Shown piece by piece: positions 6,171-64,000 of a DNA stretch of 64,000 nt (its first letter is position 1; each line of letters opens with the position of its first letter). The notes below the pieces were generated by a model. It had not been told where the DNA came from. It ran no database searches and saw nothing but the letters and a program-made list of their open reading frames with translations. The stretch is taken from contig CAVQXV010000008.1 of NCBI GenBank assembly GCA_963718005.1, positions 82,557-146,556 of the forward strand, given 5' to 3'. Both the position numbers and the translations under genes were made by a program. Source of the stretch: an uncultured Gemmatimonadales bacterium. GTDB lineage: Bacteria; Gemmatimonadota; Gemmatimonadetes; Gemmatimonadales; JACORV01.

Positions 6171-8234
6171 CTAGCGGAGCAGCGCCGCCGAGCACGAGCG
6201 ACGCCCCGATGACGAAGAAGACCACGTAGGTGCCGAGCTGGCCCGACTGCAGGCGGCTGCCGAGCCATCCCAGGCCGCGCGCCACCGCGGCGGAGCCGTT
6301 GACGCCCAGCCGTCGTCGATCACGCCGGCGTCCAGCCCCTTCCACAGCACCACGCGCGAGAACCGCACCAGCGGCCGCACGATCACCGCGCCGTAGATCT
6401 CGTCCACGTAGTACTTGTCGCGCGAGCAGCCTGGCGAAGCCGGTCTCGGCCGCGGATGCGCGCTCGGGCGGCGAGCAGCGCCTCGGCTTGAGGACCCGGG
6501 TACGCCGAGCCAGATGGCCGCCGGCCGCCGATCAGAGGCGGCCAGCGTCATCAGCGCGGAGCTCGCGTGCCGGTCGAGGGCGCCAGCGCGCGGGAGCAGC
6601 GCCGCGCTACGCTCGGTCAGCGGGCTCGAGCGCAGCGCTGGCAGCGGCATCGAGCGTGCGGCAGGTTGAGCACGCCGCCCAGCAGCGGTGAGCACGCCGA
6701 GCACGACCAGCGGCCCGGTCATCACCCACGGGCGCCTCGTGCAGGTGCGGCGCGGCGCCGTTCGCCCGTGCGGTTCGGGCCGTGGAACGTGTAGAGCATC
6801 AGCCGCGTCATGTAGAACGCGGTGAGGAGCGCCGCCACGAGTCCCGAACACCCAGACGCACGGTAGCCAGAAGCGGGTCGGCACGTCGCCGCGCGGCGAA
6901 CGCGGCGCCGAGGATCTCGTCCTTCGAGAAGAAGCCCGCGAGCGGCGGGATGCCGGCGATGGCGAGCGTGGCGATCCACATGAGCCCGCGACGTCCACGG
7001 CAGGTAGGCCGCAGGCCGCCCATGTTGCGCATGTCCTGCGCGTCGTCGTGGCTGTGCGTGTGCGTGGTAGGCGCGCGTGCATCGCGTGGATCACGCTGCC
7101 GGCGCCGAGGAACAGCAGCGCCTTGAAGAAGGCGTGCGTGACGAGGTGGAAGACGCCGGCGGCGTAGGCGCCCGCGCCCGACGCCGAGGAACATGTAGCC
7201 GAGCTGCGAGACGGTGCTGAATAGGCGAGGACCTTCTTGATGTCCCACTGCTTGAGCCCGATGGTCGCCGCGAACAGCGCCGTGAGCGCGCCGACGCCGG
7301 CCACCACCGCGCAGGCCACCGGCGAGATCGGCGAACAGGAAGTGCTGCGCGCGACGAGGTACACGCCCGCCGTGACCATCGTGGCGGCGTGGATGAGCGC
7401 CGAGACCGGCGTCGGGACCCGCCATCGCGTCGGGCAGCCACACGTAGAGCGGGATCTGGGCGCTCTTGCCCGTGCAGCCCGAGGAACAGGAACGAGCGCG
7501 ATGGCCGTGACCGTGCCGCCGCCGGCCGACCAGGCTCGTGCGGCGCCCGGGCGAACACCTCGCGGAAGTCGAGCGAGCCCAGCGTGCGCGAAGAGGAGGA
7601 ACATCGCGACCAGGAAGCCGAAGTCGCCGATGCGGTTGACGATGAACGCCTTCTTCCCGGCGTCGGCGTTGGCCTTCTCGCTCGAACCAGAACCCGATCA
7701 GCAGGTACGAGCAGAGCCCCACGCCCTCCCAGCCGACGAACATCACCGGGTAGTTGGCGCCCGAGCACCAGCACGAGCATGAAGAACACGAACAGGTTCA
7801 GGTACGCGAAGTAGCGCGCGTAGCCCGGGTCGTCGCTGCATGTAGCCGACGCTGAAGACGTGGATCAGCGAGCCGACGCCCGGTGACGACCAGCATCATC
7901 ACCACCGAGAGCTGGTCGAGCTGGAAGCGCGGCGTCGACCTGGAGGTCGCCGACCGGGATCCAGCGGTACCAGCAGGGTGCGCACGTCACGGCGTCGGCG
8001 GCGGTGCGCCCGCGAGAGCACCGCCGAGGAACGACCGCCACCCCGAGCCACGAACGGCGGCGGCGCACGTGCTGCCGACGCCCGACCACGCGTCGACCGG
8101 CGCCGCTTGCGCGCTGCGGCCGCGACGGAAGGCGCCAGCGCCCGCGTTCGACCAGCGAAGCCCGGCGAACGGGAGCAGGACACGGAGCGCAGATCCACGT
8201 CGGCCGGCGACGCGCCCGGGACGGCGGTCGTCAT
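6171..8234 (-). CDS. nuoL: NADH-quinone oxidoreductase subunit L
   Basis: [57 protein letters not shown]; heavily frameshifted. Confidence 0.93.
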
Positions 8235-8530
8235 AGCCCTGCAGCAGGTTGATGTTCTGGAGGTTCACGCGTGTCCCGGTGCCGGAAGACCGCGATGATG
8301 ATCGCCAGGCCGACCGCCGCCTCGGCGGCGGCCACGGTCATGACGAAGAACACGAACACCTGCCCGGCGAGCCCGAGCTGCTGCGACAGCGCGACGAACG
8401 TGAGGTTCACGGCGTTGAGCATCAGCTCGACGCACATGAAGATCACGATCGCGTTGCGGCGGAGCAGCACGCCGACCACGCCGAGCGAGAACAGGACCGC
8501 CGACACGGCGAGGGACGGGCCGAGCAGCAC
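8231..8530 (-). CDS. nuoK: NADH-quinone oxidoreductase subunit K
   Basis: [33 protein letters not shown]. Confidence 0.95.
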
Positions 8531-8531
8531 G

Positions 8532-9059
8532 CTACAGCCTCCGCTTGCGCGAGCACGACGGCGCCGACGATGGCCGCCAGCAGCAGCATGCACGTGATCT
8601 CGAACGGCAGGAGGTACCCTGGAACAGCGGGCTGCGCCACGGCGCGCACGGCGCCGCGCGTGCCGCCACCATCCCGGCCAGCGTGCCCGCCGGGAGCGTC
8701 AGGTCGCCGGGCGGGCCGACGAGCCGCAGCGCGATCGAGCTCGGCGACCAGGACCAGTCCCGCGACGCCCGCCACCAGCCCGGCCCCACGGGCCCGTCAT
8801 GTCGGCGTCCCGGCTGTGCCCGAGGTTGAGCAGCATGATGACGAACAGGAACACCACCATGATCGCGCCGGCGTAGACCAGCACCTGCGATGACGGCGAT
8901 GAACTGCGGCGTCGAGCAGCACGTAGAGCGCCGCCAGGCAGAACAGCGTCATCACCAGCCACAGCGCGCTCGCCACCGGGCTCCGGCGCGTCACGCACAG
9001 GAAGGCCGACGCGATGGCGATCGCCCGGCGAATGACCCAGAAGAGCGATGAGCGGTCAC
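8532..9059 (-). CDS. nuoJ: NADH-quinone oxidoreductase subunit J
   Basis: [29 protein letters not shown]. Confidence 0.92.
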
Positions 9060-9063
9060 GGCA

Positions 9064-9571
9064 TCACTCCCCCTTCGGGTCGGCCGGGATCCCACAGCGT
9101 CGAGACCGGATGCGTCTGCGCCATGAGCCGCTCGAGGTCGTACACGAAGCCGTCGCGGCTGTACTCCGCGTTCTCGTAGTGGCACGCCGACGTGGATCGC
9201 CTCCTCCGGGCAGACCTCCTGGCAGTAGCCGCAGAACACGCAGCGGAACTCGTCGATCTCGTAGACCAGCGGATAGCGGTTGCCCTTCTCGTCCTCGCCC
9301 GGCACGAGCTTGATGCAGTTCGCCGGGCACACCTGCGGGCACAGGCCGCAGGCCACGCACTTCGCCTTGCCGGTCTCGTCCACGCCATGCGGTGCGTGCC
9401 GCGCCACCGCTTGGAGAGCGTCCATCCGCCGTGCTCGTCTGCTCCGGGTACTGCATCGTCCACTTCTGTGGCGAACAGGTGCTTGAACGTGAGCGCCATG
9501 CCCTTGAGGGTGGCCCGCACGTACGAGCTCTCGGACTCGGGCCGCGCGAGGGCCTTGACCGTGATGGCCAT
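9064..9571 (-). CDS. nuoI: NADH-quinone oxidoreductase subunit I
   Basis: two 4Fe-4S motifs CVACGLCPQVCP and CVFCGYCQEVCP. Confidence 0.95.
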
Positions 9572-10801
9572 CAGGCCGCGTCCCCGTCTCGCGCGTCGCG
9601 TCGGCGCGCCACCGCGTCCGCTGGCGCGACGCCGACCCGCCGATGACCCGGTTGCGGTCGAGGCCCCACAGCAGCACGGCGACCGAGCACCAGGCTCACC
9701 CCGGTGAGCGACAGCGCGTAGCGGATGCCGAACGGGACGCCGGCGGACTCGAGGGCCCAGCACCAGGACGGCCACGACCATCACGTACGCCAGCGCCACC
9801 GGCAGCAGGACCTTCCAGCCGAGGCCATCAGCTGGTCGAAGCGGAACCGCGGGAGCGTCCAGCGCACCCACATGTAGATGAGCAGGAACAGCACCACCTT
9901 CGCCCAGAACGCGCCGAGCGTGGCGAGCGAACTTGAGCACCGTCCACGGCGGCGTGTTGTCCCATGCCGTGAAGGGGATGTCCCAGCCGCCGAAGAACAG
10001 CGTCACCATCAGCGCGCGACGCCGTCACCATGTTCGAGTACTCGGCGATGTAGAACATCGAGAACTTCATCGCGCAGTACTCGGTGTGATAGCCGGCGAT
10101 CAGCTCGGCCTCCGCCTCCGGCAGGTCGAACGGCAGCCGGTTGGTCTCGGCGAAGCTGGCGATGAAGAAGGTGAAGAACGCGACGAACAGCGGCAGCACG
10201 TACCACAGGCTCTGCTGCTGCCGGGCCACGATCGTCGTTCAGCGTGACGTTGCCGGCGAGCAGCAGCACCGCGACCGCCGACATCCCCATGGCGATCTCG
10301 TACGAGATCATCTGGCGCTCGAGCCCCGCAGGCCGCCCAGCAGCGAGTACTTGTTGTTCGATCGACCAGCCCGCCAGCACGACGCCGTACACGCCGAGCG
10401 AGCCGATGGCCAGGATGTAGAGGAACCCGACCGGCAGGTCGGCGACGGCGCTGTTCATCAGCCCCCAGGGCGTGGGCAGCGGCGAGGCGAAGGGCATCAC
10501 CGCGAACGTGAGCAGGGCCGGCATGAAGGCCATCACCGGCGCGAGCATGAACAGGAAGCGGTCGGCAGAACGGCCGGCAGGGTCTCTTCCTTCAGGAAGT
10601 TCTTGAGCCCGTCCGCCGCCGGCTGGAAGAGCCCTTCCGGGCCGACGCGGTTGGGCCCCAGCCGGTCCTGGATCCATGCCCGCGCCGCCGGCGCTCCACC
10701 CAGGTCCAGAAGGCGATCAGGGAGAGGAGGCCGCCGAACACGACCAGGATCTTGACCACCGAGATCCACACGACTAGGGGCGCACCGCTCAGCGGGCTCA
10801 T
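9571..10801 (-). CDS. nuoH: NADH-quinone oxidoreductase subunit H
   Basis: [42 protein letters not shown]. Confidence 0.95.
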
Positions 10802-16055: not shown

Positions 16056-16694
16056 TCAGGCGGACCGCGTCTGGTGGACCGAGTTGCCGAACGGCTCGGA
16101 CAGCTCGTCGATCGCCGCCGGCGTCGAGATGCAGAGCCGCGCTGGTCGGCGAGCTGCTCGACCGCGGAGCGAGCGGATCGAACAGCGACTCGCTCCTTGA
16201 TCTTCTTCTGCAGCAGCATGATGCCGTAGAGCAGCCCTTCCGGGCGCGGCGGGCAGCCGGGCACGTAGACGTCCACCGGCACGATGGTGTCGATGCCCTG
16301 CACCATCGCGTAGTTGTCGAAGATGCCGCCGGTCGAGGCGCAGGCGCCCATCGAGATGCACCACTTGGGCTGGGGCATCTGGTCGCCAGACGCGGCGGAT
16401 CACCGGCGCCAGCTTGAAGGGGAGCCGGCCGGCGCAGATCAGCACGTCGGCCTGGCGCGGCGAGAAGGCCATCCGCTCCATCCCGAAGCGGGCGAGGTCG
16501 AAGCGGCTGGCCGCCGTGGCCATGAACTCGATCGCGCAGCAGGCCGTGCCGAACGGCCATCGGCCAGAGCGAATTGGCGCGCGCCCAGTTGACGAGGTCG
16601 TCGAGCCGCGTCGTCACCCAGTTCGGGGGAGACGAAGCCGCTCGCGCAGCGCCGGGTCCTGCCCGGCCGGGCCCACCGGCCCCGTCAGTCCCAC
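16056..16694 (-). CDS. nuoB: NADH-quinone oxidoreductase subunit B
   Basis: [36 protein letters not shown]. Confidence 0.95.
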
Positions 16695-17066
16695 TCCAGC
16701 GCTCCCCGCTTCCAGACGTAGACGTACCCCACGGCCAGGATCAGCGACGAACACCAGCCATCTCCACCAGGTCCCGCCGGCGATGCCCATCGCCGAACAG
16801 GTCCGAGCTGCCGGAAGGCCACCGCCCACGGCATCATGAAGACCATCTCGATGTCGAACACGATGAACAGCATGGCGACGAGGTAGAACTTGACGTAGAA
16901 GCGCTCGCGCGCGTCGCCCAGCGGCGGCATGCCGGACTCGTAGGGCAGCGACTTGATCGGCGGTGGGGCGGGACGACGAGAACAGATGCGAGAGCGCGAC
17001 CATCATCACCGCGTTGGCGGCGACGAACCCGAGCAGCAGCAGGAGCGGAATGTAGGGTTGCAGCAT
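16685..17066 (-). CDS. nuoA: NADH-quinone oxidoreductase subunit A
   Basis: [27 protein letters not shown]. Confidence 0.95.
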
Positions 17067-17190
17067 GCGCTCCGGCGATGCGTGAGAACGGTCGTCCCGG
17101 AACTCGCGGGCAGCGAAAGCTAGTGGCGCGCCGAAATCGGAATGTCAAGAAATCGGTCATATTGTCGCACCCCCTCCACCGCGGGAGCCC

Positions 17191-17747
17191 ATGACCATCA
17201 AGTCCGACCGCTGGATCCGCCGGATGGCGCGCGAGCACGGGATGATCGAGCCGTTCGCCGACGCGCAGGTCCGCGACGGCGTCATTTCCTACGGCGTCTC
17301 GAGCCTACGGCTACGACATGCGGGTGGCCCGGGAGTTCAAGATCTTCACCAACGCGCTGTCGGCCGATCGTGGACCCCAAGAACTTCGACCCCAAGTCGT
17401 TCGTGGAGTTCGAGGGGGACGTGTGCATCGTCCCGCCCAACTCGTTCGCCCTGGCCCGGTCGGTCGAGTACTTCCGGATCCCGCGCGACGTGCTCACGAT
17501 CTGCGTGGGCAAGTCCACCTACGCGCGCTGCGGCATCATCACCAACGTCACGCCCTTCGAGCCGGAGTGGGAGGGCTTCGTGACGCTGGAGATCTCCAAC
17601 ACCACGCCGCTGCCGGCGAAGATCTACGCCAACGAGGGCATCGCGCAGGTGCTGTTCTTCCAGGGCGACGAGCCGCCGGAGGTCTCGTACGCCGACAAGA
17701 AGGGGAAGTACCAGAAGCAGCAGGGGGTGACGTTGCCGAAGCTGTGA
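17191..17747 (+). CDS. dcd: dCTP deaminase
   Basis: [37 protein letters not shown]. Confidence 0.96.
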
Positions 17748-17751
17748 CGGC

Positions 17752-17893
17752 GTGAGGAGTGAGACGTGAGGGGTGAGAAGGATAGGTGAGAGGTGAGAGG
17801 TTGAAAGGCGTGAGAAGGCGGGCCGCGCCTTCTCACGCTTCGTACTTCTCACTTCTCACTTATCCTCCTCACCCCTCACGCCTCACCTCTCAC
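17752..17893. repeat. family A heptamer-built palindromic element, copy 1
   Basis: GTGAGNN array, core hairpin GCGTGAGAAGGCG-GGCCG-CGCCTTCTCACGC, mirrored NNCTCAC array; between convergent dcd and globin genes. Confidence 0.9.
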
Positions 17894-18354
17894 CTTTTCC
17901 TCACGATTTGCCCTCGAAAGCCGTTCAGCGCGTGCAGCAGCTCCCGCTCCTCGTTGGGGCCGACGCCCGCGTGATCCAGCGCCCCCGCCAGATCCTCGAT
18001 CAGCGCGTCGAAATCCGCGTCGCTGATCTGCATGTCGGCGTGCGCCTCGCGCATGCCCTTCCCGGTGTAGCGGCAGGGACCGCCGGTCGCCTCGCAGATC
18101 TGGTCGGTGAGCTTGGCCTTCAGGCTGTCGAGGTCCACGCCGCGGAAGAAGGCGTTGATGCGCGCGTCGGCGGCCACCCGGCCGAGGAAGTCGCCGACCA
18201 CCGCGCGGATGGCGGTCACTCCGCCCAAGCGGGTGTAGAGCGAGGGCCCGGTCGGAATCGCGGCGGGCGCGGCGGGCGCCGGCGCCGGCGGCGCGGCGTG
18301 CCGGCAGGCCGGGAGCAGCAGCGCCCCGACGAGCAGCGCCGCCGCCGGCCTCAC
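17890..18354 (-). CDS. group I truncated haemoglobin with lipoprotein signal peptide
   Basis: SLYTRLGG, INAFF, TGGPCRYTGKGMREAH (proximal His); N-terminal LLLPAC lipobox and Pro/Ala linker. Confidence 0.88.
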   Translation of the reverse strand: MRPAAALLVGALLLPACRHAAPPAPAPAAPAAIPTGPSLYTRLGGVTAIRAVVGDFLGRVAADARINAFFRGVDLDSLKAKLTDQICEATGGPCRYTGKGMREAHADMQISDADFDALIEDLAGALDHAGVGPNEERELLHALNGFRGQIVRKR

Positions 18355-52059: not shown

Positions 52060-52536
52060 TCAGCCTTCCGCACCGCCCAGCGATGCGAGCAGAGTTTGCA
52101 GTTGATCTTCCGTCAGGTCGTCCAGCGACGCGCCGGAGGGCGCGGGCGGCTCCGTATCGGCCACCGCCTTGAGCTGCGCCGTGGCGTCGAGCACCGCCTC
52201 GAGCTGGCGCGCGCTGAGCGAATCCATCGCCGGGATCGAAGCCGGTAGCGGGAGCGAGGCGGCCGGCCTGGAATGGTCGGCCAGATTCATCACCAGCCCT
52301 GCCCCCACCAGCACCACGACCGCCGCCGCCGCCCTCAGCGCGGGCGGCGACATCCACAGGACGCGCCGCCGCTCCACTTCCCCGCTGCGCAGCCGCTCCA
52401 GCACCCGCGCCGCCACCCGCTCCACGTTGACCTGGGCGGCCCGCCGCGCGGCCTGCGCATTCAGCGCCTCGAGCGCCGCGTCGAGCGCGGGAGGCAGCGC
52501 CTCGTCGTTCATCCGGTCGTCGTTCATCCGATCCAT
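52060..52536 (-). CDS. putative single-pass anti-sigma factor
   Basis: overlaps the ECF stop; one TM (AAAAVVVLVGAGL); LDDLTEDQLQTLL. Confidence 0.65.
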   Translation of the reverse strand: MDRMNDDRMNDEALPPALDAALEALNAQAARRAAQVNVERVAARVLERLRSGEVERRRVLWMSPPALRAAAAVVVLVGAGLVMNLADHSRPAASLPLPASIPAMDSLSARQLEAVLDATAQLKAVADTEPPAPSGASLDDLTEDQLQTLLASLGGAEG

Positions 52537-53069
52537 GCCTTGAGCCTCTTGACGGCGTGGTGATAGTGGACCCGTGCCGCCCCTTCACTGATGCCCAGCC
52601 CACTCGATATCTCGTCGTACCCCAGCCCCTGCTGCGCCCGCATCAGGAACACCTCGCGCTGCAGCCGCGCCAGCTTCCCGATGCCCTCCTGCAACCGCTC
52701 CGCCGCCCAATCCGCCTCGGCGTGCGCCCCCGGATCTCCCGAGGGGTCGCGAATCTCCGGCGTCAGCTCCACCACCAGGTTCCGGCGCCACTGCCGCCGC
52801 CGGTCCTTGAGGACGTTGCCGCCGATGGCGAGGAGCCAGGTCCGGAACGACGCCCCTCCCCGAAACGACCCCAACGCCCGGAACGCCTTGAAGAACGTCT
52901 CCTGCGTCACGTCTTCCAGCTCGTCGTCCGGCGCGCCCTGCGAGGCCACGTAGCGGGCCAACGCGGTCGCGTGGCGGCGCACCAGCTCGGTCGCCGCTTG
53001 ATCCTCGCCCGCGAGATACCGGGCGATCAGGTCGCCGTCAGCCGCGACGGCGGGCGCTGGAAACCCCAT
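52524..53069 (-). CDS. ECF RNA polymerase sigma factor
   Basis: EDVTQETFFKAF, FRTWLLAI, QREVFLMR..YDEIS..GAARVHYH. Confidence 0.92.
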   Translation of the reverse strand: MGFPAPAVAADGDLIARYLAGEDQAATELVRRHATALARYVASQGAPDDELEDVTQETFFKAFRALGSFRGGASFRTWLLAIGGNVLKDRRRQWRRNLVVELTPEIRDPSGDPGAHAEADWAAERLQEGIGKLARLQREVFLMRAQQGLGYDEISSGLGISEGAARVHYHHAVKRLKAWIG

Positions 53070-53123
53070 GCGACAACGAGTTAGACGCGGCCTTGCGCAT
53101 CCCGTTAAGCCCCCGCGATATTG

Positions 53124-53139
53124 TCGAACAATCGTTCGA
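53124..53139. promoter_or_regulatory. palindromic TetR operator (PaaR-like)
   Basis: TCGAAC-AATC-GTTCGA just downstream of TTGCGC..GATATT promoter-like hexamers, 17 bp before the TetR ATG. Confidence 0.65.
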
Positions 53140-53156
53140 AACAATCCCGAGGCTGA

Positions 53157-53747
53157 ATGCCGGATTTCGATCGCCGCCGAGATGGACTCTTGGCTGCCGC
53201 CGCGCGCGTGTTCGCCGCGAGGGGGTACCACCGGACGAGCATGCGCGACCTCGCGCGCGCCAGCCGGATGAGCCTGGCGGGAATGTACTACTACGTCGCG
53301 GGCAAGGAGGACCTGCTGCTCGAGATCCAGAAGGGATCGTTCGAGCGGGTCCGGCGCGGCGCGGAAGAGGCCGTGGCGGGCGCGACGACGCCCGAAGAGC
53401 GGCTGCTGGCCTTCATCCGGCACCACGTCCGGTTCTTCGCCAGTCACATGGACGAGATGAAGGTGCTCTCGCACGAGGCGGAGTCGCTGACGGGCGCTCC
53501 GCTGGAAGAGGTCCGCCGGCTCAAGAAGGCGTACGTGGGTCTGCTGCTCGACCTGCTGGCGGCGCTCGACGCGCAGGACGGCGGCCACCGGATGGACCGG
53601 CACGTGGCCGCCTACACGCTGTTCGGCATGATGAACTGGATCTACACCTGGTACGACCCCGCCGGACCGGTCGGGGTCGAGGAGCTGGCGGAGTCCATCT
53701 GCCGGCTGTTCCTGAACGGCTACGCTGCGGAGGTACACGTCCGATGA
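53157..53747 (+). CDS. TetR-family regulator (PaaR/KstR2-like)
   Basis: FAARGYHRTSMRDLA, YYYVAGKEDLL, FGMMNWIYTWY. Confidence 0.92.
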   Translation: MPDFDRRRDGLLAAAARVFAARGYHRTSMRDLARASRMSLAGMYYYVAGKEDLLLEIQKGSFERVRRGAEEAVAGATTPEERLLAFIRHHVRFFASHMDEMKVLSHEAESLTGAPLEEVRRLKKAYVGLLLDLLAALDAQDGGHRMDRHVAAYTLFGMMNWIYTWYDPAGPVGVEELAESICRLFLNGYAAEVHVR

Positions 53748-54569
53748 CGGCGACGATGGAGCAGGACACGAAGACGGCGAAGCGGCTGGTGGACGTCACC
53801 AAGCAGGACGGGATCGCGATCATCGCGCTCGAACGACCCGCCGGCCAACACCTACACCTACGAGATGAACCGCCAGCTCGACGAGGCGATCCTCGACGCG
53901 CGGATGGACGAGGGCGTGTACGTGATCGTGCTCCGCGGCACCGGCAACAAGTTCTTCTCGGCGGGCGCGAACATCAGCATGCTGAATTCCGTGACGCCGA
54001 CGTTCAAGTACTACTTCTGCCTCCACGCCAACGAGATGCTGAACCGGCTGGAGCACACGCCCAAGCTGGTGATCGCGGCCCTGAACGGCCACACCGTGGG
54101 CGGCGGGCTCGAGATCGCGATGGCGGCCGACATCCGCATCGCCCGCCAGGAAGCCGGGAAGATCGGCCTGCCCGAGGTGAACCTCGGCGTGCTCCCGGGC
54201 ACGGGCGGCACGCAGCGGCTCTCGCGCATCGTGGGCAAGAGCCGCGCGATCGAGATGATGGTGACGGGCCAGACGTTCTCGTTCGAGAAGGCGCAGGAGA
54301 TCGGCCTGGTGAACGAGGTCTGGGACGGCAAGCCCGAGGAGTGGTGGGAGCGGGTGATGCTGTACGCGAAGCAGTTCTGCCCGCCCAACAAGGCCTCCAA
54401 GGCCGTGGGCAACATCAAGCGCGCGGTCTGCTCGGGCCTCGAGGTGCCCTTCGAGAGCGCGCTGGCCATCGAGCGGGAGCTGCAGCAGCTCCTCTTCCAG
54501 AGCGCGGACGCCAAGGAAGGCATCGGCGCGTACGTCGAGAAGCGCGTCCCGGCGTTCAAGGGCAAGTAG
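53744..54569 (+). CDS. enoyl-CoA hydratase/crotonase (two catalytic Glu)
   Basis: FSAGANI, GGGLEIA, GLPEVNLGVLPGTGGTQRL; distinctive YYFCLHANE. Confidence 0.92.
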
Positions 54570-56004
54570 TGCGCCTCGACCATTACATCGGCGGCGCGTT
54601 CGCGCCGTCCGCCGGCGGGAAGCGCTTCCCGGTCGAGAACCCCGCCACCGAGGAGATCCTCGGCCAGGTGGCCCTGGCCGAGGCGGCCGACGTGGACCGC
54701 GCGGTGGCGGCGGCCAAGGCGTGCTTCGAGTCGGACGGCTGGCAGAAGCTCGAGCCGCGGCGCCGGGGCCAGATGCTGACCAGGGCGGCCGACCTGCTGG
54801 AATCGCGGCTCGACGAATTCGCGAAGCTGGAGACGCTGCAGAACGGGAAGCCGTTGTTCGAGTCGAAGATCGACGTGGCGATGACCGTCGAGACCCTGCG
54901 CTACTACGCCGGCTGGGCCGACAAGATCACGGGCGCCACGCTGCCGGTCGGGTCCGGCTCGTTCGTCTACACGCTGAAGGAGCCGCTGGGCGTCGTGGGC
55001 GCGATCGTGCCGTGGAACTTCCCGCTCAACCTGGCCTCGTGGAAGTTCGCGCCCGGCGCTGGCCGCGGGCTGCACCGTGGTGCTGAAGCCCGCGTCCGAG
55101 ACGCCGCTCACCGCGCTGCTGATGGCCGAGGTGATGGAGGCGGCGGGCCTCCCGGCCGGCGCGTTCAACGTGGTGGCGGGCGACGGCCGCACGGCCGGCG
55201 CGGCGCTGGTCCGGCATCCCGGACGTGGACAAGATCGCGTTCACGGGCTCGACCGCCGTCGGCCAGGGCATCATGCGCGAGGCGGCCGGAACCGTGAAGC
55301 GCATCTCCCTCGAGCTGGGCGGCAAGTCCCCCAACATCGTCTTCGCCGACGCGGACGTGACGGCCGCGGTCAAGGGCGCGCAGACCGCGATCTTCTACGG
55401 GAAGGGCGAGGTGTGCGCCGCGGGCTCGCGCCTGGTGGTGGAGCGGAAGGTGCACGACCAGGTGGTCGAGCAGCTGGCCGCTCGCGCGAAGAAGCTGGTG
55501 CCCGGCGATCCGTTCGACAAAGCCACCCGCCTCGGCGCCGTGGTCTCGAAGAAGCAGCAGGAGACGGTCCTCGGCTACATCGCCAAGGGCGTGGGCGAAG
55601 GCGCCGCGCTCGTGGCCGGCGGCAACGCCGCCAAGGTGAACGGCAAGGGCTACTACGTCGAGGCCACGGTGTTCGACGCCGTCACGCCCGAGATGACCAT
55701 CGCCCGCGAGGAGATCTTCGGGCCGGTGCTGGCCGTGCTCGCCTTCGACGACGTCGAGGAAGGCATCCGCCTGGCCAACCAGTCCATGTACGGGCTCGCG
55801 GCCGGCATCTGGACGCGGGACGTGTCGAAGGCGCACCGGGTGGCGCGCGCGCTCAAGGCCGGGACGGTGTGGATCAATACGTACAACGTGTACGACTCCG
55901 GCGCGCCCTTTGGGGGCTATAAGGCGTCCGGGTTCGGCAGAGATCTGGGGCGAGAAGGGCTGGACGGGTACCTGGAGACGAAGACGGTCTGGGTCGGGCT
56001 GTAG
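54569..56004 (+). CDS. aldehyde dehydrogenase
   Basis: [34 protein letters not shown]. Confidence 0.95.
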
Positions 56005-56020
56005 CGGCAGGAATACAGAC

Positions 56021-56074
56021 TGCAGAACAGTTGCCAGACGCCAAGTTGGCAGTGGTTACGAGTTGCCAGAGGGC
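56021..56074 (+). repeat. family B single arm, intergenic (ALDH-thiolase)
   Basis: TGCAGAACAGTTGCCAGACGCCAAGTTGGCAGTGGTTACGAGTTGCCAGAGGGC; 21-nt core identical to 22583-22603. Confidence 0.85.
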
Positions 56075-56077
56075 GGT

Positions 56078-57425
<1,348 letters not shown>

Positions 57426-57436
57426 CCGGGAGCGGC

Positions 57437-58232
57437 ATGAGCGCATACACGCAAGTCGCGGTGAAGGTTGATGGTCCGGTGGGCACCATCACCTTGAACC
57501 GCCCCGACAAACTCAACGCCTTCACCGTGGACATGGTGCAGGAGTTGAAGGAAGCGCTCGGCATGCTCGCCGGCTCCTCGGCCGTGCGCGTCATCGTCCT
57601 CACCGGGGCGGGCCGGGCGTTCTGCGCGGGCGCGGACGTCGGCCTGCTCAAGGGCCTGATCGAGCGGTTCGACGAGGCCACGGGCCGCCGCCTGGTGGAC
57701 GGCATGCGCGGCGTGTCGGCCATCATGCGATCGGCGCCGCAGCCGGTCCTGGCCTCGATCAACGGCGTGGCCGCCGGCGGCGGGGCCAATCTCGCCCTCG
57801 GCTGCGACCTCCGGATCGCGGCCGACACGGCGCAGATCGGGCAGGTGTTCACGAAGATCGGGCTGCACCCCGACTGGGGCGGGACCTTCTTCCTGCCGCG
57901 GCTGGTAGGACCGGCGAAGGCGCTGGAGCTGCTGATCGGCGCCGAGATGGTGGGCGCCGCCGAGGCCGAGCGCCTGGGCCTCGTGAACCGGGTGGTGCCG
58001 GCCGCGCAGCTGGCCGAGGCGACGCGCGGCGTGGGCGCGGCAGATCGCGGCGGCGCCGCCGCTCGCCGTGCGCCGGCTCAAGGCCGCCGTGTACCTGAGC
58101 GAGCGCGCCTCGCTGGAGGAGGTGCTGACCTACGAGCTGGACGCCCAGCTCGCGTGCATGCAGAGCGCGGACGGCAAGGAAGGCATTGCGGCATTCTTCG
58201 AGAAGCGGCCCCCCCACTTCACCGGGCGCTGA
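57437..58232 (+). CDS. PaaG-like enoyl-CoA isomerase/hydratase
   Basis: LNRPDKLNA, FCAGAD, GGGANLALGCD, FTKIGLHPDWGG (Asp-type, no catalytic Glu). Confidence 0.85.
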
Positions 58233-58244
58233 GGAGACGGTTCC

Positions 58245-59363
58245 ATGATGCGGGTGCACACGTTCGACGAGTGGATCGACTACTTCCGGGTCTGGCAGGC
58301 CGACCTCGGCCTCGAGGCCAAGGAGCTTCGCGAGTTCAAGTTCGAGACCAAGTTCGGCGAGCCGGAAGCCGAGCAGATCGAGTTCGGGCACTTCAAGGGC
58401 CAGCGCAAATGGCCCACGGTGATGCACATCCCGGATCAGCGCATCCGCGACGCGCTCCAGAACCTGATCGTCTACCAGGGCGACACGGAGTTCGCCTCGG
58501 TCGAGCAGCAGCGCTCGCTGCTCGAGAACCCGCCGTCGTCCTACGACCTGCTCTCGATCATGCGGGTGATGGCCGAGGAGATGCGGCACGGCTGGCAGAT
58601 GTCGTACCTGCTGGTCGAGCACTTCGGCGAGGAGGGCAAGCGGGAAGCGCAGAAGCTGCTCGAGCGGCGCGCCGAGGAGGGCAAGCGGCTGCTGGGCTCG
58701 TTCAACGAGCGGGTGGACAACTGGCTCGACTTCTTCACCTACACCCAGTTCATCGACCGCGACGGGAAGTTCCAGCTCAAGATGCTCTCGACCTCGGCGT
58801 TCCATCCGCTGGCGCGCTCGATGGGCCCGATGCTGAAGGAGGAGTCGTACCACCTGGGCACCGGGAACAACGGCCTGCTCCGGATCGTGAAGGCCGGCCG
58901 GATCCCGACCGAGATCATCCAGCGGTTCTTCAACAAGTGGGTGCCCACGGCGTTCGACCTGTTCGGCACCGACAACTCGTCCTCGGCGCAGTGGGCCTAC
59001 GAGTGGGGCCTCAAGGGCCGGTTCGACGAGCGGGAGAACCAGGCCGACGCGAACAAGGCGCACCTCAACGAGGCGTCGCGGGGCCTGTATCGCGACGAGA
59101 TCTGCCGGCTGGTGGACCGCCTCAACCAGCTGATCCCCGACCGCGAGCGCTGGCTCGAGGTGCCCGCGCTGCAGTTCAACCGGCGCATCGGGCAGTGGGG
59201 GCAGCAGTGCTTCACGGTGGACGGCAAGCCGATGGAGCGCGAGCGCTACGCCGCCTATCTCGCCTCGGTGACCCCCAGCCCGGCCGACCGCGCGCAGTTG
59301 GTCGAGCTGTTCAAGGAACCCGACTGGATAGCCCCGAAGAAGGGCGATAGTATGGACGCGTGA
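58245..59363 (+). CDS. BoxB-like aryl-CoA diiron epoxidase (short, 372 aa)
   Basis: QGDTEFASVEQQR, EEMRH, DRDGKFQL, PLAR..EESYH follow the BoxB ligand pattern. Confidence 0.85.
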   Translation: MMRVHTFDEWIDYFRVWQADLGLEAKELREFKFETKFGEPEAEQIEFGHFKGQRKWPTVMHIPDQRIRDALQNLIVYQGDTEFASVEQQRSLLENPPSSYDLLSIMRVMAEEMRHGWQMSYLLVEHFGEEGKREAQKLLERRAEEGKRLLGSFNERVDNWLDFFTYTQFIDRDGKFQLKMLSTSAFHPLARSMGPMLKEESYHLGTGNNGLLRIVKAGRIPTEIIQRFFNKWVPTAFDLFGTDNSSSAQWAYEWGLKGRFDERENQADANKAHLNEASRGLYRDEICRLVDRLNQLIPDRERWLEVPALQFNRRIGQWGQQCFTVDGKPMERERYAAYLASVTPSPADRAQLVELFKEPDWIAPKKGDSMDA

Positions 59364-60049
59364 GCCGGCCGCTCATCATCGCGCACCGCGGCGCCGCGGG
59401 CTACGAGGTGGAGAATTCGCTCGCCGCGTTCCGGGCGGCGGGCGAGCTGGGCGCCGACGCGGTCGAGCTGGACATCCACTCCACCGCGGACGGCGCCCTC
59501 GTCGTGCATCACGGCGAGACGATCGGCGACCACCACATCGCCCACCTGTCGCTGGCCGACATCCGCGAGCATCCGCTGGCCAACGGGGAGCCCATCCCCA
59601 CCCTGCCCGAGGCGCTGGCGCTCATCGTTCCCAGGATGATCGCCTACGTCGAGATCAAGTTCGTGGCCAAGGCGTGGGACGACCGGCTGTTCGAGGCGAT
59701 CGAGCGCTCGGGCGCCCCGGAGCGCATCGCGCTGCACGCCTTCGACCACCGCATCATCCGGCGCATGGGCGAGAAGCGGCCGTTCATCCGGCGCGGCGTG
59801 CTGTCGGCGTCGTACCCGGTGTATCCCGTGCGCACGCTCGAGGACGCCGACGCGACCATCCTGTGGCAGCACCATCACCACGTGGACGACGCGCTGGTCA
59901 CCAAGCTGCACGGCGCCGGCATGACGCTGCACGTCTGGACGGTGAACGATCCGGCCGAGGTCCGGCGCTTCCTGGCGCTGGGCGTGGACGGGATCTGCAC
60001 CGACTATCCCGACGTGGCGCGGGCGGCCTTCACCGGCCTGCCCGCGTGA
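59360..60049 (+). CDS. glycerophosphodiester phosphodiesterase family protein
   Basis: IAHRG, ENSLAAF, ELDIH, EIK, WTVND, GICTDYP. Confidence 0.92.
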   Translation: MSRPLIIAHRGAAGYEVENSLAAFRAAGELGADAVELDIHSTADGALVVHHGETIGDHHIAHLSLADIREHPLANGEPIPTLPEALALIVPRMIAYVEIKFVAKAWDDRLFEAIERSGAPERIALHAFDHRIIRRMGEKRPFIRRGVLSASYPVYPVRTLEDADATILWQHHHHVDDALVTKLHGAGMTLHVWTVNDPAEVRRFLALGVDGICTDYPDVARAAFTGLPA

Positions 60050-60904
60050 GCGACGTCGCGGCCGTCGCCGTCATCGGCGCCGGCACGATGGGCCACGGCA
60101 TCGCGCAGGTGGCGGCGCAGGCGGGCTACGCGGTGCGCCTGACCGACACCGTGCCCGGCGCGGTGCGCGCGGGGCTGGAGCGGATCCGGGCCAACCTCGA
60201 CGGCGGCGTGCAGCGCGGCAAGCTGACCGCGGCCGAGCGCGACGCCGCGCTGGCGCGCATCGAGCCCGCCGCCGGCCCGGCCGAGGCGGCCCGGGGCGCT
60301 GGTCTCGTGATCGAGGCCGCGCCGGAGGACCTCGAGATCAAGCGCGCCCTGTTCGCCGCGCTCGCCGTCGCGGCGCCGGCGGCCGTGCTGGCCACCAACA
60401 CCTCCTCGCTCTCCGTCGCCGCCATCGCCTCCGCCGCCGCACGCCCCGAGCGGGTCGTCGGGATGCACTTCTTCAACCCGGTGCACCTCATGAAGCTGGT
60501 CGAGGTGGTCACGCACGCGGGCACCAGCGCCGCAGGCGCGCGACACCGCGGTCGCGGCCGCGGGCCGCATGGGCAAGGAGCCGATCGTCGTGCGCGACTC
60601 GCCCGGCTTCGCGTCGAGCCGGCTGGGCGTGGCCATCGGGCTCGAGGCGATCCGCATGCTGGAGGAGGGCGTGGCATCGGTCGAGGACATCGACCGCGCG
60701 ATGACGCTGGGCTACAACCACCCGGTGGGGCCCCTCAAGCTCACCGACATGGTCGGACTCGACGTGCGGCTCGCCATCGCCCGCTACCTGCACGCGCAGC
60801 TGGGCGCGCGCTTCGCGCCCCCCGCCCTGCTCGAGCGGATGGTGGCCGAGGGCAAGCTGGGCCGGAAGAGCGGCCAGGGGTTCTATCCGTGGCCCGACCG
60901 ATGA
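60046..60904 (+). CDS. 3-hydroxyacyl-CoA dehydrogenase (PaaH/Hbd-like)
   Basis: GAGTMGHGIA, TNTSSL, GMHFFNP, DMVGLD, GRKSGQGFY. Confidence 0.93.
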
Positions 60905-61833
60905 GCGCGGCGAGTGGCGCGCCCCTGGACCCGGGCACCCGTGCTCTGGCAACCACCGGCAACTTGCCGTCTGGCAACTCGCTTCCGGGCATTACGGACG
61001 TCCACGTGCACATCCAGCCGTGGCGCCAGATGAAGCCGGAGGTGATGGAGGCGATGCGCCGCGGGAAGGAGGATCACTGGGAGTTCCTCCTCGCGCTGAT
61101 GGACGACCCGAAGGCCCTGCTCGACGTGATGGACCGCGCCGGCGTGTGGCGCGTCGGCCTGGTGAACTACCCGAGCCCCGACCTGATGGGTTTCACCGAC
61201 GAGACCAACGCGTTCGCGGTGCGCTACGCCGAGGCGGCGCCCGACCGGCTGCTTCCCTACGGCGGCGTGCACCCGCGCTTCACGGGCGACATCAAGGGCC
61301 ACGTGGACGAGCTGCTGGAAATCGGCATCCGCTGCCTCAAGATCCATCCGCCGCACCAGCTCTTTCCCGCCAACGCGCACACCCAGGGCATGCAGACCCT
61401 CGGCGCGCTGTACCGGCGCTGCGAGGATCGCGGTTTGCCGGTCATGGTGCACACCGGCACCAGCGTGTTTCCCGGCGCGCGCTGCAAGTACGGTCACCCG
61501 ATGGAGCTCGACGACGTCGCGGTGGACTTCCCCGACCTCACCATCCTGATGGCGCACGGCGGGCGGCCCCTGTGGATGGACGAGGCGTTCTTCATTCTCC
61601 GCCGGCACAAGAACGTGCACCTGGACGTCTCGGGCATCCCGCCGCTCAAGCTGCTGGAGTATTTCCCGCGGTTGGAGGAGGTGGCCGACCGGGTGCTGTG
61701 GGGCACCGACTGGCCGAGCCCCGGGGTGCACGAGATGCGGCGCAACATCGAGCAGTTCCTGTCGCTCGACCTGCCGAAGCAGGTCCAGGACCAGATCACC
61801 CGGGACAACGCGCTGAAGGTGTTTCCCGCTTAG
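60901..61833 (+). CDS. amidohydrolase-2 family metalloenzyme
   Basis: DVHVH, KIHPP, VHTG, AHGGRP, WGTDWP. Confidence 0.9.
   Translation: MSAASGAPLDPGTRALATTGNLPSGNSLPGITDVHVHIQPWRQMKPEVMEAMRRGKEDHWEFLLALMDDPKALLDVMDRAGVWRVGLVNYPSPDLMGFTDETNAFAVRYAEAAPDRLLPYGGVHPRFTGDIKGHVDELLEIGIRCLKIHPPHQLFPANAHTQGMQTLGALYRRCEDRGLPVMVHTGTSVFPGARCKYGHPMELDDVAVDFPDLTILMAHGGRPLWMDEAFFILRRHKNVHLDVSGIPPLKLLEYFPRLEEVADRVLWGTDWPSPGVHEMRRNIEQFLSLDLPKQVQDQITRDNALKVFPA
60943..60980 (-). repeat. family B single arm, in frame inside the amidohydrolase N-terminus
   Basis: minus strand GAGTTGCCAGACGGCAAGTTGCCGGTGGTTGCCAGAGC vs CAGTTGCCAGACGCCAAGTTGCAGTGGTTACCAGATG. Confidence 0.8.
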
Positions 61834-62198: not shown

Positions 62199-64000
62199 GG
62201 CGTCCTCCCGTGGGATACCCTACGGGCCCCGCCGGGTGCGGGTTGCAGCGGATCGAGCACGACGCCTTCCCAGACGGTGACGTCGTCCACCAGGGACAGC
62301 GTGCCGATGGACCGGCCGGCGATCACCAGCGTCCAGCGGGACCCGGGGGTCGCGCTCACGTGCGCCGGCGGCACCTCCTCGATCCCGTCGGCGAACCAGC
62401 GGACCTGTCCGCCCGGATAGGCGACCAGGCGATAGCGATGCCAGGCGCCGTCGGCCAGGCGGCGCGGCAGGGGCACGAACGTGGAGGACGGGCCCGCGTC
62501 CGAGACCACCGCCATCATCTGGCGACGGGCGTCGTTCGGGTTGGGAGCCTCGAGCGAGACGGCCGCCACGTTCGACGCCGGCTCCGGCCCGTACCCCTGG
62601 TGGAAGGAGTCGGCGGGCGCGGTGTAGAGGCCGACCTTGACCGACTGCCACAGCGGCCGGCCGACGGGTATCTGGGCCCAATACTCCACCGTGAGGCCGC
62701 GGTCGAGCGAGAGCGCTCTCTTGAGCGCGATGCCGCTGGCGTGCGAGTACGAGCCGCGGTTGAGGAAGCCGCTCGAGCCGTTGCGGCCGGATCCGACGAC
62801 GACCTCGGGCAGCGGGGTCCCGTAGATGCGCCATTGGGCCGGATCGAGGCCGCGCTCGAAGTCCTCGGTCAGCAGGACGCGCGCCGGGATCGCATCCACC
62901 CGGACGTACGAGGTGTCGTCGATCCGCTCGAGGCCGGTGCTGGCGATGACGGCGGCGCTGCCCCGGCCGATCGGCGATCACGACGCCGTCCTCGTCCACC
63001 CGCACGACGGAGGAGTCGGTCGTGAGCCACTGCACCTGCTCCGGACCGAGCCGCTCCCCGGACGGGCCCACGCCCTCGACCCGCAGCGTGCGGGAGTCGC
63101 CGACGGTGAGCGTGAGCGAGTCGGGCTCGACGTTCAGCTTGTGGAGCGGCGGCGCGGAGCCGGGGGTCGTCCAGGCCACCAGGCGCGGCGGCGCCGCGAA
63201 GCTCGCCACGAGGCGGGGCTCGTTGCGTCCGTCGCGGTCCACCACGTACACGCCCGGCGCCCGCCCGCCCACCGACACCGCCACGTAGCGCCCGTCGGCC
63301 GACCAGACGGGGCCGCTCACGACGGCGCCCGGGAACGTCACGTTGGTGGGCCAGCTCTGCGGCCGGGCCACGCCGAGGCGCAGGACGTGGGTGTCCTCGA
63401 GCAGGCAGGCGAGCCGTTCCCCGTTCGGCGACCAGGTCACCTTGGTGGAGCGGTCGCACCAGTCGATGACGGCGAGCACCCGGCCCGACAGGTCCACGAT
63501 CGCCGCCTCCGAGCGCCGGTCGCGGGTGCGGAGCAGCAGGATCTTGTCGCCCATCGGGGACGACCACGCGCCGTCGTAGGCCGCGGAATCGCGCGAGATG
63601 GTGCGGATCACGCGGCCGCCGGCGTCGAGCAGCAGCAGGTCGTGCGCGTACCCGCCGCCGGGCGTCGCGCGGCCGCGCAGCACGATGAGGGCCGAGCCGT
63701 CGGGCAGCCAGCCGACGGGGGCCACGTCGCCGTCGAACTTGGCGAACAGCGCGGTGGCTCCGGTGACCAGGTTGCGGAGGCACAGGGCGACGGGGTCCAC
63801 GTCCGGCAGGTTGCAGACGACGGCGGCGGCCTTGAGATCGGGCCGGATCGTGTTGGGGTACAGGCCCTCGCGCGTGGGCGCCGGCAGCGAGCTCAGCGGC
63901 GCGGCGCTGCCCGACGAACGCGGCGTTCACCGTGAGCGCGCGCACGGAGTCCGGCCGCCCCGGCATCCCCCAGCCGATGGCGATGTTCGCGCCGCCGAGC
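62195..64000 (-). CDS. large protein with TolB-like propeller, Ig-like (Big_2) and LamG/ConA-like domains (5' end outside window; frameshift near 62970)
   Basis: WLPDG/WSPNG/WSADG repeats; VEPDSLTLTVGD..W.TTDSSVVRVDEDGVV; LTEDFE..DGAWHRY..VDDVTVW. Confidence 0.7.

Follow-up and report, generated by a model that had tools for sequence, protein, structure and literature searches.

A short BoxB-like diiron protein in a conserved Gemmatimonadota operon: a candidate variant of the box pathway for CoA esters

What could a BoxB-like diiron protein be doing in an operon that encodes none of the usual Box or Paa partners? The question is raised by nine co-oriented plus-strand genes at 53157-61833 of the window, a stretch of 64,000 nucleotides (G000:C8:82557-146556; GC content ~70%) from a Gemmatimonadota metagenome-assembled genome (MAG), G000. 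Matches to Pfam and NCBIfam give the order TetR regulator, crotonase (ECH1), aldehyde dehydrogenase (ALDH), thiolase, second crotonase (ECH2), diiron protein, GDPD-family phosphodiesterase, 3-hydroxyacyl-CoA dehydrogenase (HCDH) and Amidohydro_2 protein, the same unit that an earlier note on this DNA had described. We suggest that the operon encodes a box-like pathway of CoA-ester oxygenation and ring opening, with a new BoxB subfamily and a single-domain analogue of BoxC, a reading to which we give an even chance. The earlier note had proposed a variant CoA-dependent epoxide pathway; we retain its main lines (a BoxB-type enzyme, no Box or Paa partners, a conserved operon, and enzymes that fit aldehyde oxidation and beta-oxidation) and drop the split BoxC that it offered as an alternative for ring opening.

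The predicted structure of the diiron protein (AlphaFold; predicted local distance difference test, pLDDT, 93.9; predicted template modelling score, pTM, 0.91) has the BoxB fold. Foldseek matched it to the BoxB structures 3PM5 and 3Q1G at E ~5e-22 with a template modelling score (TMq) of 0.87-0.89, and to 4MUD and PaaA at ~0.5. Sequence matches in the PDB were BoxB (3PER, 181 bits), 4MUD (66 bits) and PaaA (28 bits), and the protein scores 44.4 bits against the PaaA model (TIGR02156), for which the cut-off is 280. The 4MUD entry is SSO1313 of Sulfolobus, an uncharacterised PaaA/BoxB-like protein; it too is a short ferritin-like relative (TMq 0.49) but is much shorter, at 235 aa, and more distant. 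The six iron ligands of BoxB, as named in an excerpt of PMC5489048 (E120, E150, H153, D211, E240, and H243), are identical in the window protein, where they are E82, E112, H115, D171, E200, and H203. Of the residues named there for the benzoyl pocket, Q116, T119, S123, F193, and F203 are identical in the alignment; the substitutions are F206Y, the neighbouring F208Q, and T210I.

Other features set the protein apart from canonical BoxB. The three substitutions are conserved across the clade of short forms, as are changes to the EEMRHGWQM and KEESYHLGTGN motifs, and the motifs that flank the BoxB residues differ consistently between four canonical rows of the alignment and the short forms. Aligned with BoxB, the short form runs collinearly; missing from it are ~20 residues at the N-terminus, three internal insertions, and the tail at the C-terminus. 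Against the BoxB model (TIGR03225, 471 positions) it scores 225.4 bits in three stretches (194.7 bits in the genome search), where the cut-off is 499.1; six short-form representatives score 100-234 bits, three canonical BoxB proteins 509-908, and a 495-aa Planctomycetota protein 157. In a maximum-likelihood tree of 37 rows, several of them distant, on long branches and unsure in position, the four canonical BoxB proteins are split from the window protein by a branch of length 2.7 with 100/99 support. Because the score is 225 against 499 bits, segments are missing, the pocket is changed, and the split is supported at 100/99, we conclude that, judged by sequence, the protein is BoxB-type but not canonical BoxB, and forms a clade of its own beside it. 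This agrees with the earlier note, which had expected a BoxB-type epoxidase distinct from BoxB and had named nesting within characterised BoxB as part of an observation that would speak against it; the tree places the protein outside. The note had also described the epoxidase as a single subunit, and this is no departure, as BoxB itself is monomeric (PMC4498308, in the part consulted).

The partners of both known systems are missing from the window. The best BoxA match in G000 reaches 34 bits (cut-off 459), and none of five further genomes has a BoxA over the cut-off. The best BoxC match in G000, 75 bits against a cut-off of 712, is ECH1, and among the genomes searched only G186 has a BoxC over the cut-off. 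The only PaaA match is the diiron gene, at 39-48 bits (cut-off 280) in five genomes. Nothing exceeds the PaaZ cut-off in any of six genomes of the genus (best match 125 bits, cut-off 563), and the same six gave no PaaK match at E <= 1e-20. The earlier observation that boxA, boxC, the paa oxygenase partners, paaZ and a CoA ligase are absent from the window holds there and, for BoxA, BoxC and the Paa partners, in the complete genomes searched. AMP-binding domains do occur in G000, in six pieces spread over five places, none of them on contig C8. There is one FNR-type module, at C5:303474.

We place no weight on the lack of BoxA, which the earlier note had listed. In G186 (L102, G186:C2:653000-672900) a canonical BoxB (7148-8593, minus strand, 858 bits) lies beside a BoxC (8600-10447, minus strand, 882 bits), with a benzoate-CoA ligase (16377-17939, minus strand, 721 bits) 6 kb away and ~1 kb uncalled between 10447 and 11495. 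No BoxA over the cut-off was found anywhere in that genome (best 27 bits). Because G186 has canonical BoxB and BoxC and also lacks BoxA, its absence is not diagnostic in this phylum; the canonical box genes of Gemmatimonadota seem, on this gene content, to use another reductase.

It could be argued that the diiron protein is simply a trimmed but otherwise ordinary benzoyl-CoA 2,3-epoxidase, serving a minimal benzoate box pathway with a housekeeping reductase. The fold is that of BoxB, all the iron ligands and five of the eight named pocket residues are identical, the downstream enzymes would fit a route from 3,4-dehydroadipyl-CoA semialdehyde to 3-oxoadipyl-CoA, the Joint Genome Institute (JGI) already labels the family boxB, and the canonical pair of G186 manages without BoxA. 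We nevertheless consider this unlikely. It leaves the low model score, the long separate branch and the clade-wide changes in the pocket and the two motifs unexplained; no BoxC exceeds the cut-off in the short-form genomes searched, and a benzoate-CoA ligase does so in only one of four (G036, and not G065, G123, or G138; G186 also has one).

Our preferred reading, in which the enzyme acts on a related CoA ester, calls for a partner that opens the ring, and ECH1 is the candidate. As the earlier note had seen, it carries both catalytic Glu motifs of a two-Glu crotonase; E124 and E145 are invariant in 36 orthologues. In G000, G065, G123, G138, and G036 it is the best match to the BoxC model (TIGR03222), at 75-90 bits with a cut-off of 712. 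It aligns with the catalytic N-terminal domain of the G186 BoxC at 30% identity over 227 aa (82 bits), with its GGGLE and LPE in register with GGGYE and FPE, the two Glu motifs of that BoxC. The Asn of an 'AGANI' motif, compared with the single BoxC sequence of G186 in which it also occurs, is present in 54 of 55 ECH1-type rows; in the ECH2- and ECH3-type rows the position is Asp in 47 of 57, the other ten falling outside the pattern. BoxC is described, in the part of PMC4498308 consulted, as having a single active site with two Glu positioned as in PaaF, as co-purifying with BoxB, and as needed against inhibition of BoxB by its product. Since ECH1 is the constant partner of the diiron gene, is the best match to the BoxC model, aligns at both Glu motifs and shares the Asn, we propose that it is a single-domain analogue of BoxC.

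A physical association of the two proteins is weakly supported. For the intact pair from locus L047 the complex prediction gave a median of 0.33 (runs 0.01, 0.42, and 0.33; best control 0.00), a mark that 58 of 80 solved complexes attain, as do 2 of 110 mismatched pairs; of these, only 7 of the 80 and both mismatches lie at 0.60 or below. Contacts are shared between the runs to at least 52%, and the partner pLDDT is at least 89.

ECH2 is less like BoxC. The earlier note's description of it as PaaG-like is borne out by its PDB matches (2EJ5, 156 bits; E. coli PaaG, 134 bits, sixth in the list), and its 220-aa piece scores 161.6 bits against the PaaG model (TIGR02280; cut-off 345); the intact orthologue has no NCBIfam family match at E <= 1e-75. 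With BoxC it aligns poorly, at 46 bits. The suggestion that the two crotonases act together as a split BoxC was rejected on this ground, since only ECH1 aligns to the BoxC N-terminal domain. A crotonase-type 'alternative' oxepin-CoA hydrolase (NF046063) has been described for bacteria that lack the PaaZ fusion. There, too, opening of the oxygenated ring falls to a stand-alone crotonase and oxidation of the aldehyde to a separate ALDH; that hydrolase, however, acts behind PaaABCE rather than a BoxB-type enzyme, and neither ECH1 (117 bits) nor ECH2 (138 bits) is a member of the family (cut-off 300).

The remaining enzymes fit aldehyde oxidation and beta-oxidation in a general way. The intact ALDH orthologue is nearest to StyD (565 bits, cut-off 800) and BADH; it is a generic ALDH1/2-type enzyme, neither BoxD- nor PaaZ-like. 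The best-matching families of the intact thiolase orthologue are NF006551 (535 bits, cut-off 605) and TIGR02430 (518 bits, cut-off 597), both below the cut-off, and it exceeds that of the generic subfamily TIGR01930 (445 against 241). The HCDH is a 3-hydroxyacyl-CoA dehydrogenase, as had been thought, but 'PaaH-like' is only loosely right, as it is of the short type (~286 aa) and the PaaH model (TIGR02279) has 503 positions; its N-terminal piece scores 154 bits against that model (cut-off 669), and the best family of the intact 291-aa orthologue is PRK09260 (313 against 429 bits). The Amidohydro_2 protein has no NCBIfam family and a single relative in the PDB, the uncharacterised 3IRS (66 bits); in the Protein Atlas it falls only into 'Amidohydrolase 2 family protein' clusters from Gemmatimonadota.

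These enzymes could also be read as ordinary beta-oxidation of a non-aromatic acyl-CoA, with the diiron protein as a hydroxylase or desaturase that stands in for an acyl-CoA dehydrogenase ahead of hydratase, dehydrogenase, and thiolase. There is indeed no acyl-CoA dehydrogenase among the operon genes or, like CoA ligases, among the recurrent neighbour clusters of the 80 loci described below; ECH1 resembles an ordinary two-Glu hydratase, the HCDH is of the short butyryl-CoA type, and the ferritin-like diiron family includes desaturases (PMC5489048, in part). We regard this as improbable, since the residues with which BoxB holds the benzoyl ring and the thioester are largely retained, plain beta-oxidation has no need of the conserved ALDH (59 of 62 loci), and the thiolase comes closest to those of the dicarboxylate (3-oxoadipyl-CoA) type.

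Conservation of the operon was assessed in the best 80 of 596 related places, fetched from species genomes, a gene being counted only where the contig reaches far enough (Table 1). The closest relatives of the window genes are all in Gemmatimonadota MAGs. Gene order is kept in ~90-100% of the assessable loci, over a range of 62-92% identity in the diiron protein. The most conserved proteins are ECH1, ALDH, diiron and Amidohydro_2 (~70-88% identity to L047), the Amidohydro_2 protein being as conserved as the diiron protein (70-80%); GDPD and ECH2 are the least conserved (45-66%). Four junctions (TetR/ECH1, diiron/GDPD, GDPD/HCDH, and HCDH/Amidohydro_2) have 4-bp overlaps of ATGA or GTGA, with GTGA at each end of the GDPD gene. 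Many relatives have further downstream genes for M16 peptidases, Amidohydro_1/3 proteins, a citrate/sulfate-type transporter and an aminotransferase; these are variable and missing from the window, and we did not count them in the unit.

Table 1. Features of the operon in the window and their presence in related loci
Feature	Position	Strand	Evidence in the window	Present in assessable loci
Probable TetR operator	53123..53140	.	18-bp near-palindrome GTCGAACAATCGTTCGAA, one base off TTCGAAC-N4-GTTCGAA	
TetR-family regulator, 196 aa	53157..53747	+	TetR_N 51 bits (cut-off 24), TetR_C_24 99 bits	56/58
ECH1, two-Glu crotonase	~53744..54569	+	ECH_1 165 bits; insertion at 53830 breaks N-terminus	60/60
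ALDH, generic ALDH1/2-type	54569..56004	+	Aldedh pieces 158 + 345 bits; insertions near 55055, 55223	59/62
Thiolase, closest to 3-oxoadipyl-CoA thiolase (PcaF/PaaJ)	~56063..57297	+	Thiolase_N, Thiolase_C; errors 56710-56733, 56912	68/72
ECH2, PaaG-like crotonase/isomerase	57437..58232	+	ECH_1 171 bits; insertion near 58030	70/74
Short BoxB-like putative diiron oxygenase, 372 aa, intact	58245..59363	+	PaaA_PaaC/BoxB-like; TIGR03225 225 bits	
GDPD-family phosphodiesterase, 229 aa	59360..60049	+	GDPD (PF03009) 127.5 bits (cut-off 23.6)	72/77
HCDH, short-type 3-hydroxyacyl-CoA dehydrogenase, ~286 aa	60046..60904	+	3HCDH_N 165, 3HCDH 110 bits, two frames; insertion 60534	68/74
Amidohydro_2 protein	60901..61833	+	Amidohydro_2 (PF04909) 120.7 bits (cut-off 26.4)	63/67
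Third crotonase (ECH3)				37/71

Outside Gemmatimonadota the picture is different. The sole operon partner kept there is ECH1 (~70% identical), on three Acidobacteria gp13 contigs and one contig labelled Rokubacteria. The Acidobacteria module consists of TetR, ECH1, a C26 amidase, in some cases ECH2, the diiron protein, and ECH3; on the Rokubacteria-labelled contig ECH1 is the only operon gene near the diiron gene. Additional genes in these loci encode the C26 amidase, a macro domain, a zinc alcohol dehydrogenase and a fusion of ketoacyl synthase III with acyl carrier protein (KAS III-ACP). One might conclude that the functional module is limited to the diiron protein, ECH1, and TetR, and that ALDH, thiolase, GDPD, HCDH, and Amidohydro_2 are unrelated genes held in place by inherited synteny; that GDPD and Amidohydro_2 have no obvious role would agree with this. 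We find it less probable still than a hydroxylase or desaturase, in view of the 4-bp overlaps that join the diiron gene to GDPD, HCDH, and Amidohydro_2 (and TetR to ECH1), the order kept in ~90-100% of assessable loci while the diiron protein varies from 62 to 92% identity, and the conservation of ALDH and Amidohydro_2 (70-85%), which equals that of the diiron protein.

The diiron gene of the contig labelled Candidatus Rokubacteria (L087, 8242-9357) nests in the Gemmatimonadota clade (100/99 with P0120, P0042, and others) and has a different neighbourhood, which on the sequence points to gene transfer or to a mis-binned contig.

A link to CoA thioesters comes from more distant relatives. The P0137 clade is the most divergent full-length group (45% identical) and is represented by 45 metagenome loci (L109-L153). 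No crotonase lies nearby; in 11 of the 18 loci that could be assessed the diiron gene has an AMP-forming ligase no more than 1.2 kb away, and in 12 of 18 a GcvT-family gene no more than 3.5 kb away, beside a Liv-type ABC transporter. This neighbourhood appears to link the wider clade to the CoA thioesters of imported acids. We note that these loci are of Burkholderiales type (for example L123, 7303-15779, with the AMP-forming ligase, the GcvT-family folate-binding protein and the Liv-type ABC transporter), that on some of the contigs the GcvT-family protein is fused into proteins of 789-933 aa, and that in some loci a luciferase-like monooxygenase lies directly upstream. The arrangement would be a second uncharacterised context of the short BoxB-like family.

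The pathway that we favour can be set out as follows. TetR would control a catabolic operon through a palindromic operator. The diiron oxygenase would most likely use O2 and two electrons to attack the ring of a benzoyl-CoA-like thioester, by epoxidation or by some other oxygenation; the substrate is probably not plain benzoyl-CoA, and the electrons would come from a donor that is not encoded nearby. A CoA ester is suggested as substrate because of the ligase linkage in the P0137 clade and because the thiolase is nearest to 3-oxoadipyl-CoA thiolase. ECH1 would take the reactive product and open the ring hydrolytically, in the manner of the catalytic N-terminal domain of BoxC, and the ALDH would oxidise the resulting aldehyde. 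ECH2, the short HCDH, sometimes the third crotonase, and the 3-oxoadipyl-CoA-thiolase-like enzyme would complete the route by beta-oxidation. GDPD and Amidohydro_2 would belong to the unit without an assigned step.

Set beside the box pathway of Azoarcus evansii and Burkholderia xenovorans (BoxB, BoxA, BoxC, and BoxD), the scheme shares the fold, the six ligands and most of the benzoyl pocket, a two-Glu crotonase that adjoins the oxygenase, and an ALDH followed by beta-oxidation to a thiolase of 3-oxoadipyl-CoA type. It differs in an oxygenase that is ~100 aa shorter, without four BoxB segments, below the equivalog cut-off, in a separate clade and altered in its pocket; in a single-domain crotonase (273 aa) in place of the two-domain BoxC (~550 aa); in an ALDH that is not BoxD-like; in having no BoxA that was found and no linked benzoate-CoA ligase; and in the addition of GDPD and Amidohydro_2 under a TetR regulator. 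The likeness to the Paa pathway (PaaABC(D)E, PaaG, PaaZ, and PaaF/H/J) is confined to ECH2, which resembles PaaG, the thiolase, which resembles PaaJ/PcaF, and analogous hydratase and dehydrogenase steps. In contrast, the similarity to PaaA is weak, there are no PaaB, C, D, or E partners, PaaZ and PaaK are missing from the genus genomes searched, and the HCDH is not of the long PaaH type.

Several observations weigh against this scheme. Apart from the thiolase, and then only for a generic subfamily, no operon protein exceeds a curated equivalog cut-off. In overall similarity ECH1 is nearest to ordinary hydratases (2PPY 240 bits, PaaF 135, and PaaG 93, with BoxC, 2W3P, at 83), and the Asn that it shares with BoxC was compared with one sequence. 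The ALDH is generic, its top PDB matches being ALDH1/2 enzymes at 500-514 bits and the box ALDH 2VRO lying outside the best 60. No reductase or ferredoxin occurs in any of the 80 neighbourhoods, and none was identified elsewhere. The benzoate-CoA ligase, as noted, is over the cut-off in one of four short-form genomes. GDPD and Amidohydro_2 are strongly conserved and have no place in the scheme. Finally, because outside Gemmatimonadota the diiron gene is not accompanied by ALDH, thiolase, or HCDH, part of the synteny may reflect inheritance and not function.

A bolder form of the same idea, which we put forward tentatively and hold to be clearly less probable than the general scheme, is that the short BoxB-like proteins are a third class of CoA-ester ring oxygenase, next to BoxB and PaaA. 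In the clade of the window protein the oxygenase would form a two-protein machine with ECH1 and act on a substituted or heterocyclic aryl-CoA rather than on benzoyl-CoA, drawing on a general ferredoxin; in this genus a CoA-transferase under the same operator, instead of a ligase, might supply the substrate, and Amidohydro_2 and GDPD would catalyse new steps specific to it. An excerpt of PMC5489048 names only BoxB and PaaA as characterised CoA-ester ring epoxidases. Should the family have a substrate of its own and a minimal analogue of BoxC, it would represent a new branch of 'hybrid' aerobic aromatic catabolism and offer a simpler, two-protein system in which to study the hand-over of an epoxide from oxygenase to crotonase.

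The family itself is large. When 8,000 candidates from a word-indexed search with the diiron protein were scored, at least 7,534 proteins matched at E <= 0.001; the top 120 show 70-92% identity and are mostly ~370 aa long. An exhaustive search of representatives at 50% identity gave 929 matches at E <= 0.001, many of them fragments, and 135 at E <= 1e-30. Among 201 Gemmatimonadota genomes (G000 and the unpublished G153 and G178 included), 53 matched the BoxB model: 45 strongly but below the cut-off (172-209 bits), two as canonical BoxB, and six weakly. The family also occurs in Acidobacteria, and distant short forms in Burkholderiales and Myxococcota MAGs. In the source databases its members are labelled 'benzoyl-CoA 2,3-dioxygenase component B', 'Phenylacetic acid catabolic protein', or 'PaaI'. 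The literature searched, a scope outside which lie the supplements of PMC10581226 and bioRxiv 10.1101/2025.11.25.690425, contained no description of a short BoxB form; in the parts of those two papers that were covered, benzoyl-CoA genes in Gemmatimonadota are mentioned only as annotation. The family is common in soil and peat Gemmatimonadota, and given these labels metagenome surveys may misread it as benzoate or phenylacetate degradation; should it turn out to act on a substrate of its own with a minimal analogue of BoxC, such ecological inferences would need to be corrected.

One distant member deserves mention. In P0194, a protein of 367 aa from a Myxococcota MAG, the alignment shows His at the position of E120, Asn at E150, and Ser at H153; it may be a non-catalytic, PaaC-like form.

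The argument presupposes a functional operon, and five of its genes are broken in frame in the window (ECH1, ALDH twice, thiolase twice, ECH2, and HCDH), giving seven disturbances within 8.7 kb. Frame plots of GC content at third codon positions (GC3), combined with Pfam, detected the halves of these genes in different frames, and the breaks were mapped against intact orthologues on L022, a short-read contig that is 90% identical. Relative to L022 they are six single extra bases and one disturbed patch, in the thiolase gene (positions in Table 1); the single-base breaks are all insertions in the window. Logan contigs from four public peat and wetland runs omit, among the indels listed, one base at 53830 (four of four runs), 55052 (one run), 55217 (three), 56712 (two), 56911 (two), 58024 (four) and 60534 (three); these contigs are 90-99% alike, and thus come from close relatives and not necessarily from the same strain. 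In G000 the essential rpoB gene (G000:C3:333097-337485) is itself split into 12 matched pieces. Because rpoB is shattered too, the breaks are insertions, and neither the public contigs nor L022 has the extra bases, we conclude from the sequence comparison that the frame breaks are assembly errors and that the operon is intact. That the cluster is a decaying array of pseudogenes with real frameshifts, as seven disturbances over so short a distance might suggest, is a reading we reject as highly improbable, given that rpoB is broken to the same degree, that each extra base is missing from the public contigs and L022, that short-read assemblies and the 100%-complete G065 carry intact orthologues, and that GC3 stays at 0.9 or above in every gene piece across the breaks. 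G000 (3.19 Mb in 10 contigs) is rated only 58% complete; with single-base insertions frequent in the assembly this figure probably understates it, and gene calls from the window require a frame-tolerant reading.

In nearly all of 57 related upstream regions the TetR gene is closely preceded by the palindrome TTCGAAC-N4-GTTCGAA, of which a variant occurs in Acidobacteria. Genome-wide, allowing at most one mismatch, the site was found in G065, a genome of the same genus, and in G036 at the operon only, in G123 at the operon and one other place (with one mismatch), in G138 nowhere, and in G000 at the operon and three other places; a reversed-pattern control gave no sites. The operator search found no box genes under the same operator, the other part of the observation that the earlier note had said would count against its proposal.

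Two of the three additional sites in G000 lie near called genes. The candidate site GTCGAACATTCGTTCGAA (G000:C3:439513-439530; L104, 3014-3031), one spacer base off the operon operator, is ~100 nt upstream of a gene for a CoA-transferase of the acetyl-CoA hydrolase/transferase family (L104:3131-4462). In G065 the core, two mismatches off, is kept at the corresponding position before the orthologue (L108, 93% identical); searches of G123, G138, G036, and G186 at E <= 1e-40 did not find the gene. As a lead, the CoA-transferase may be a member of the regulon that activates the substrate, in this genus only. The palindrome TTTGAACGATGGTTCGAA (G000:C4:160562-160579; L105, 3063-3080) lies between a PadR-family gene and a TetR_C_24 stretch; the flanking genes are at L105:2345-2971 and 3408-5255, and the stretch has TetR_C_24, 2Fe-2S and xanthine-dehydrogenase-family molybdenum domains. 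The palindrome is probably the own operator of a paralogous TetR, with a molybdenum hydroxylase under its control. The third site is at a place where no gene is called.

A scan for promoters and terminators returned no promoter-like sites and one terminator-like site, inside the amidohydrolase gene, fewer than in shuffled sequences. Upstream of the operon lies a divergent gene for an extracytoplasmic function (ECF) sigma factor (52530-53069, minus strand). Downstream are convergent genes, among them a large AAA_16/STAND-type NTPase gene (62204-63999, minus strand) that is itself frame-changed at ~62962 and 63910-63920.

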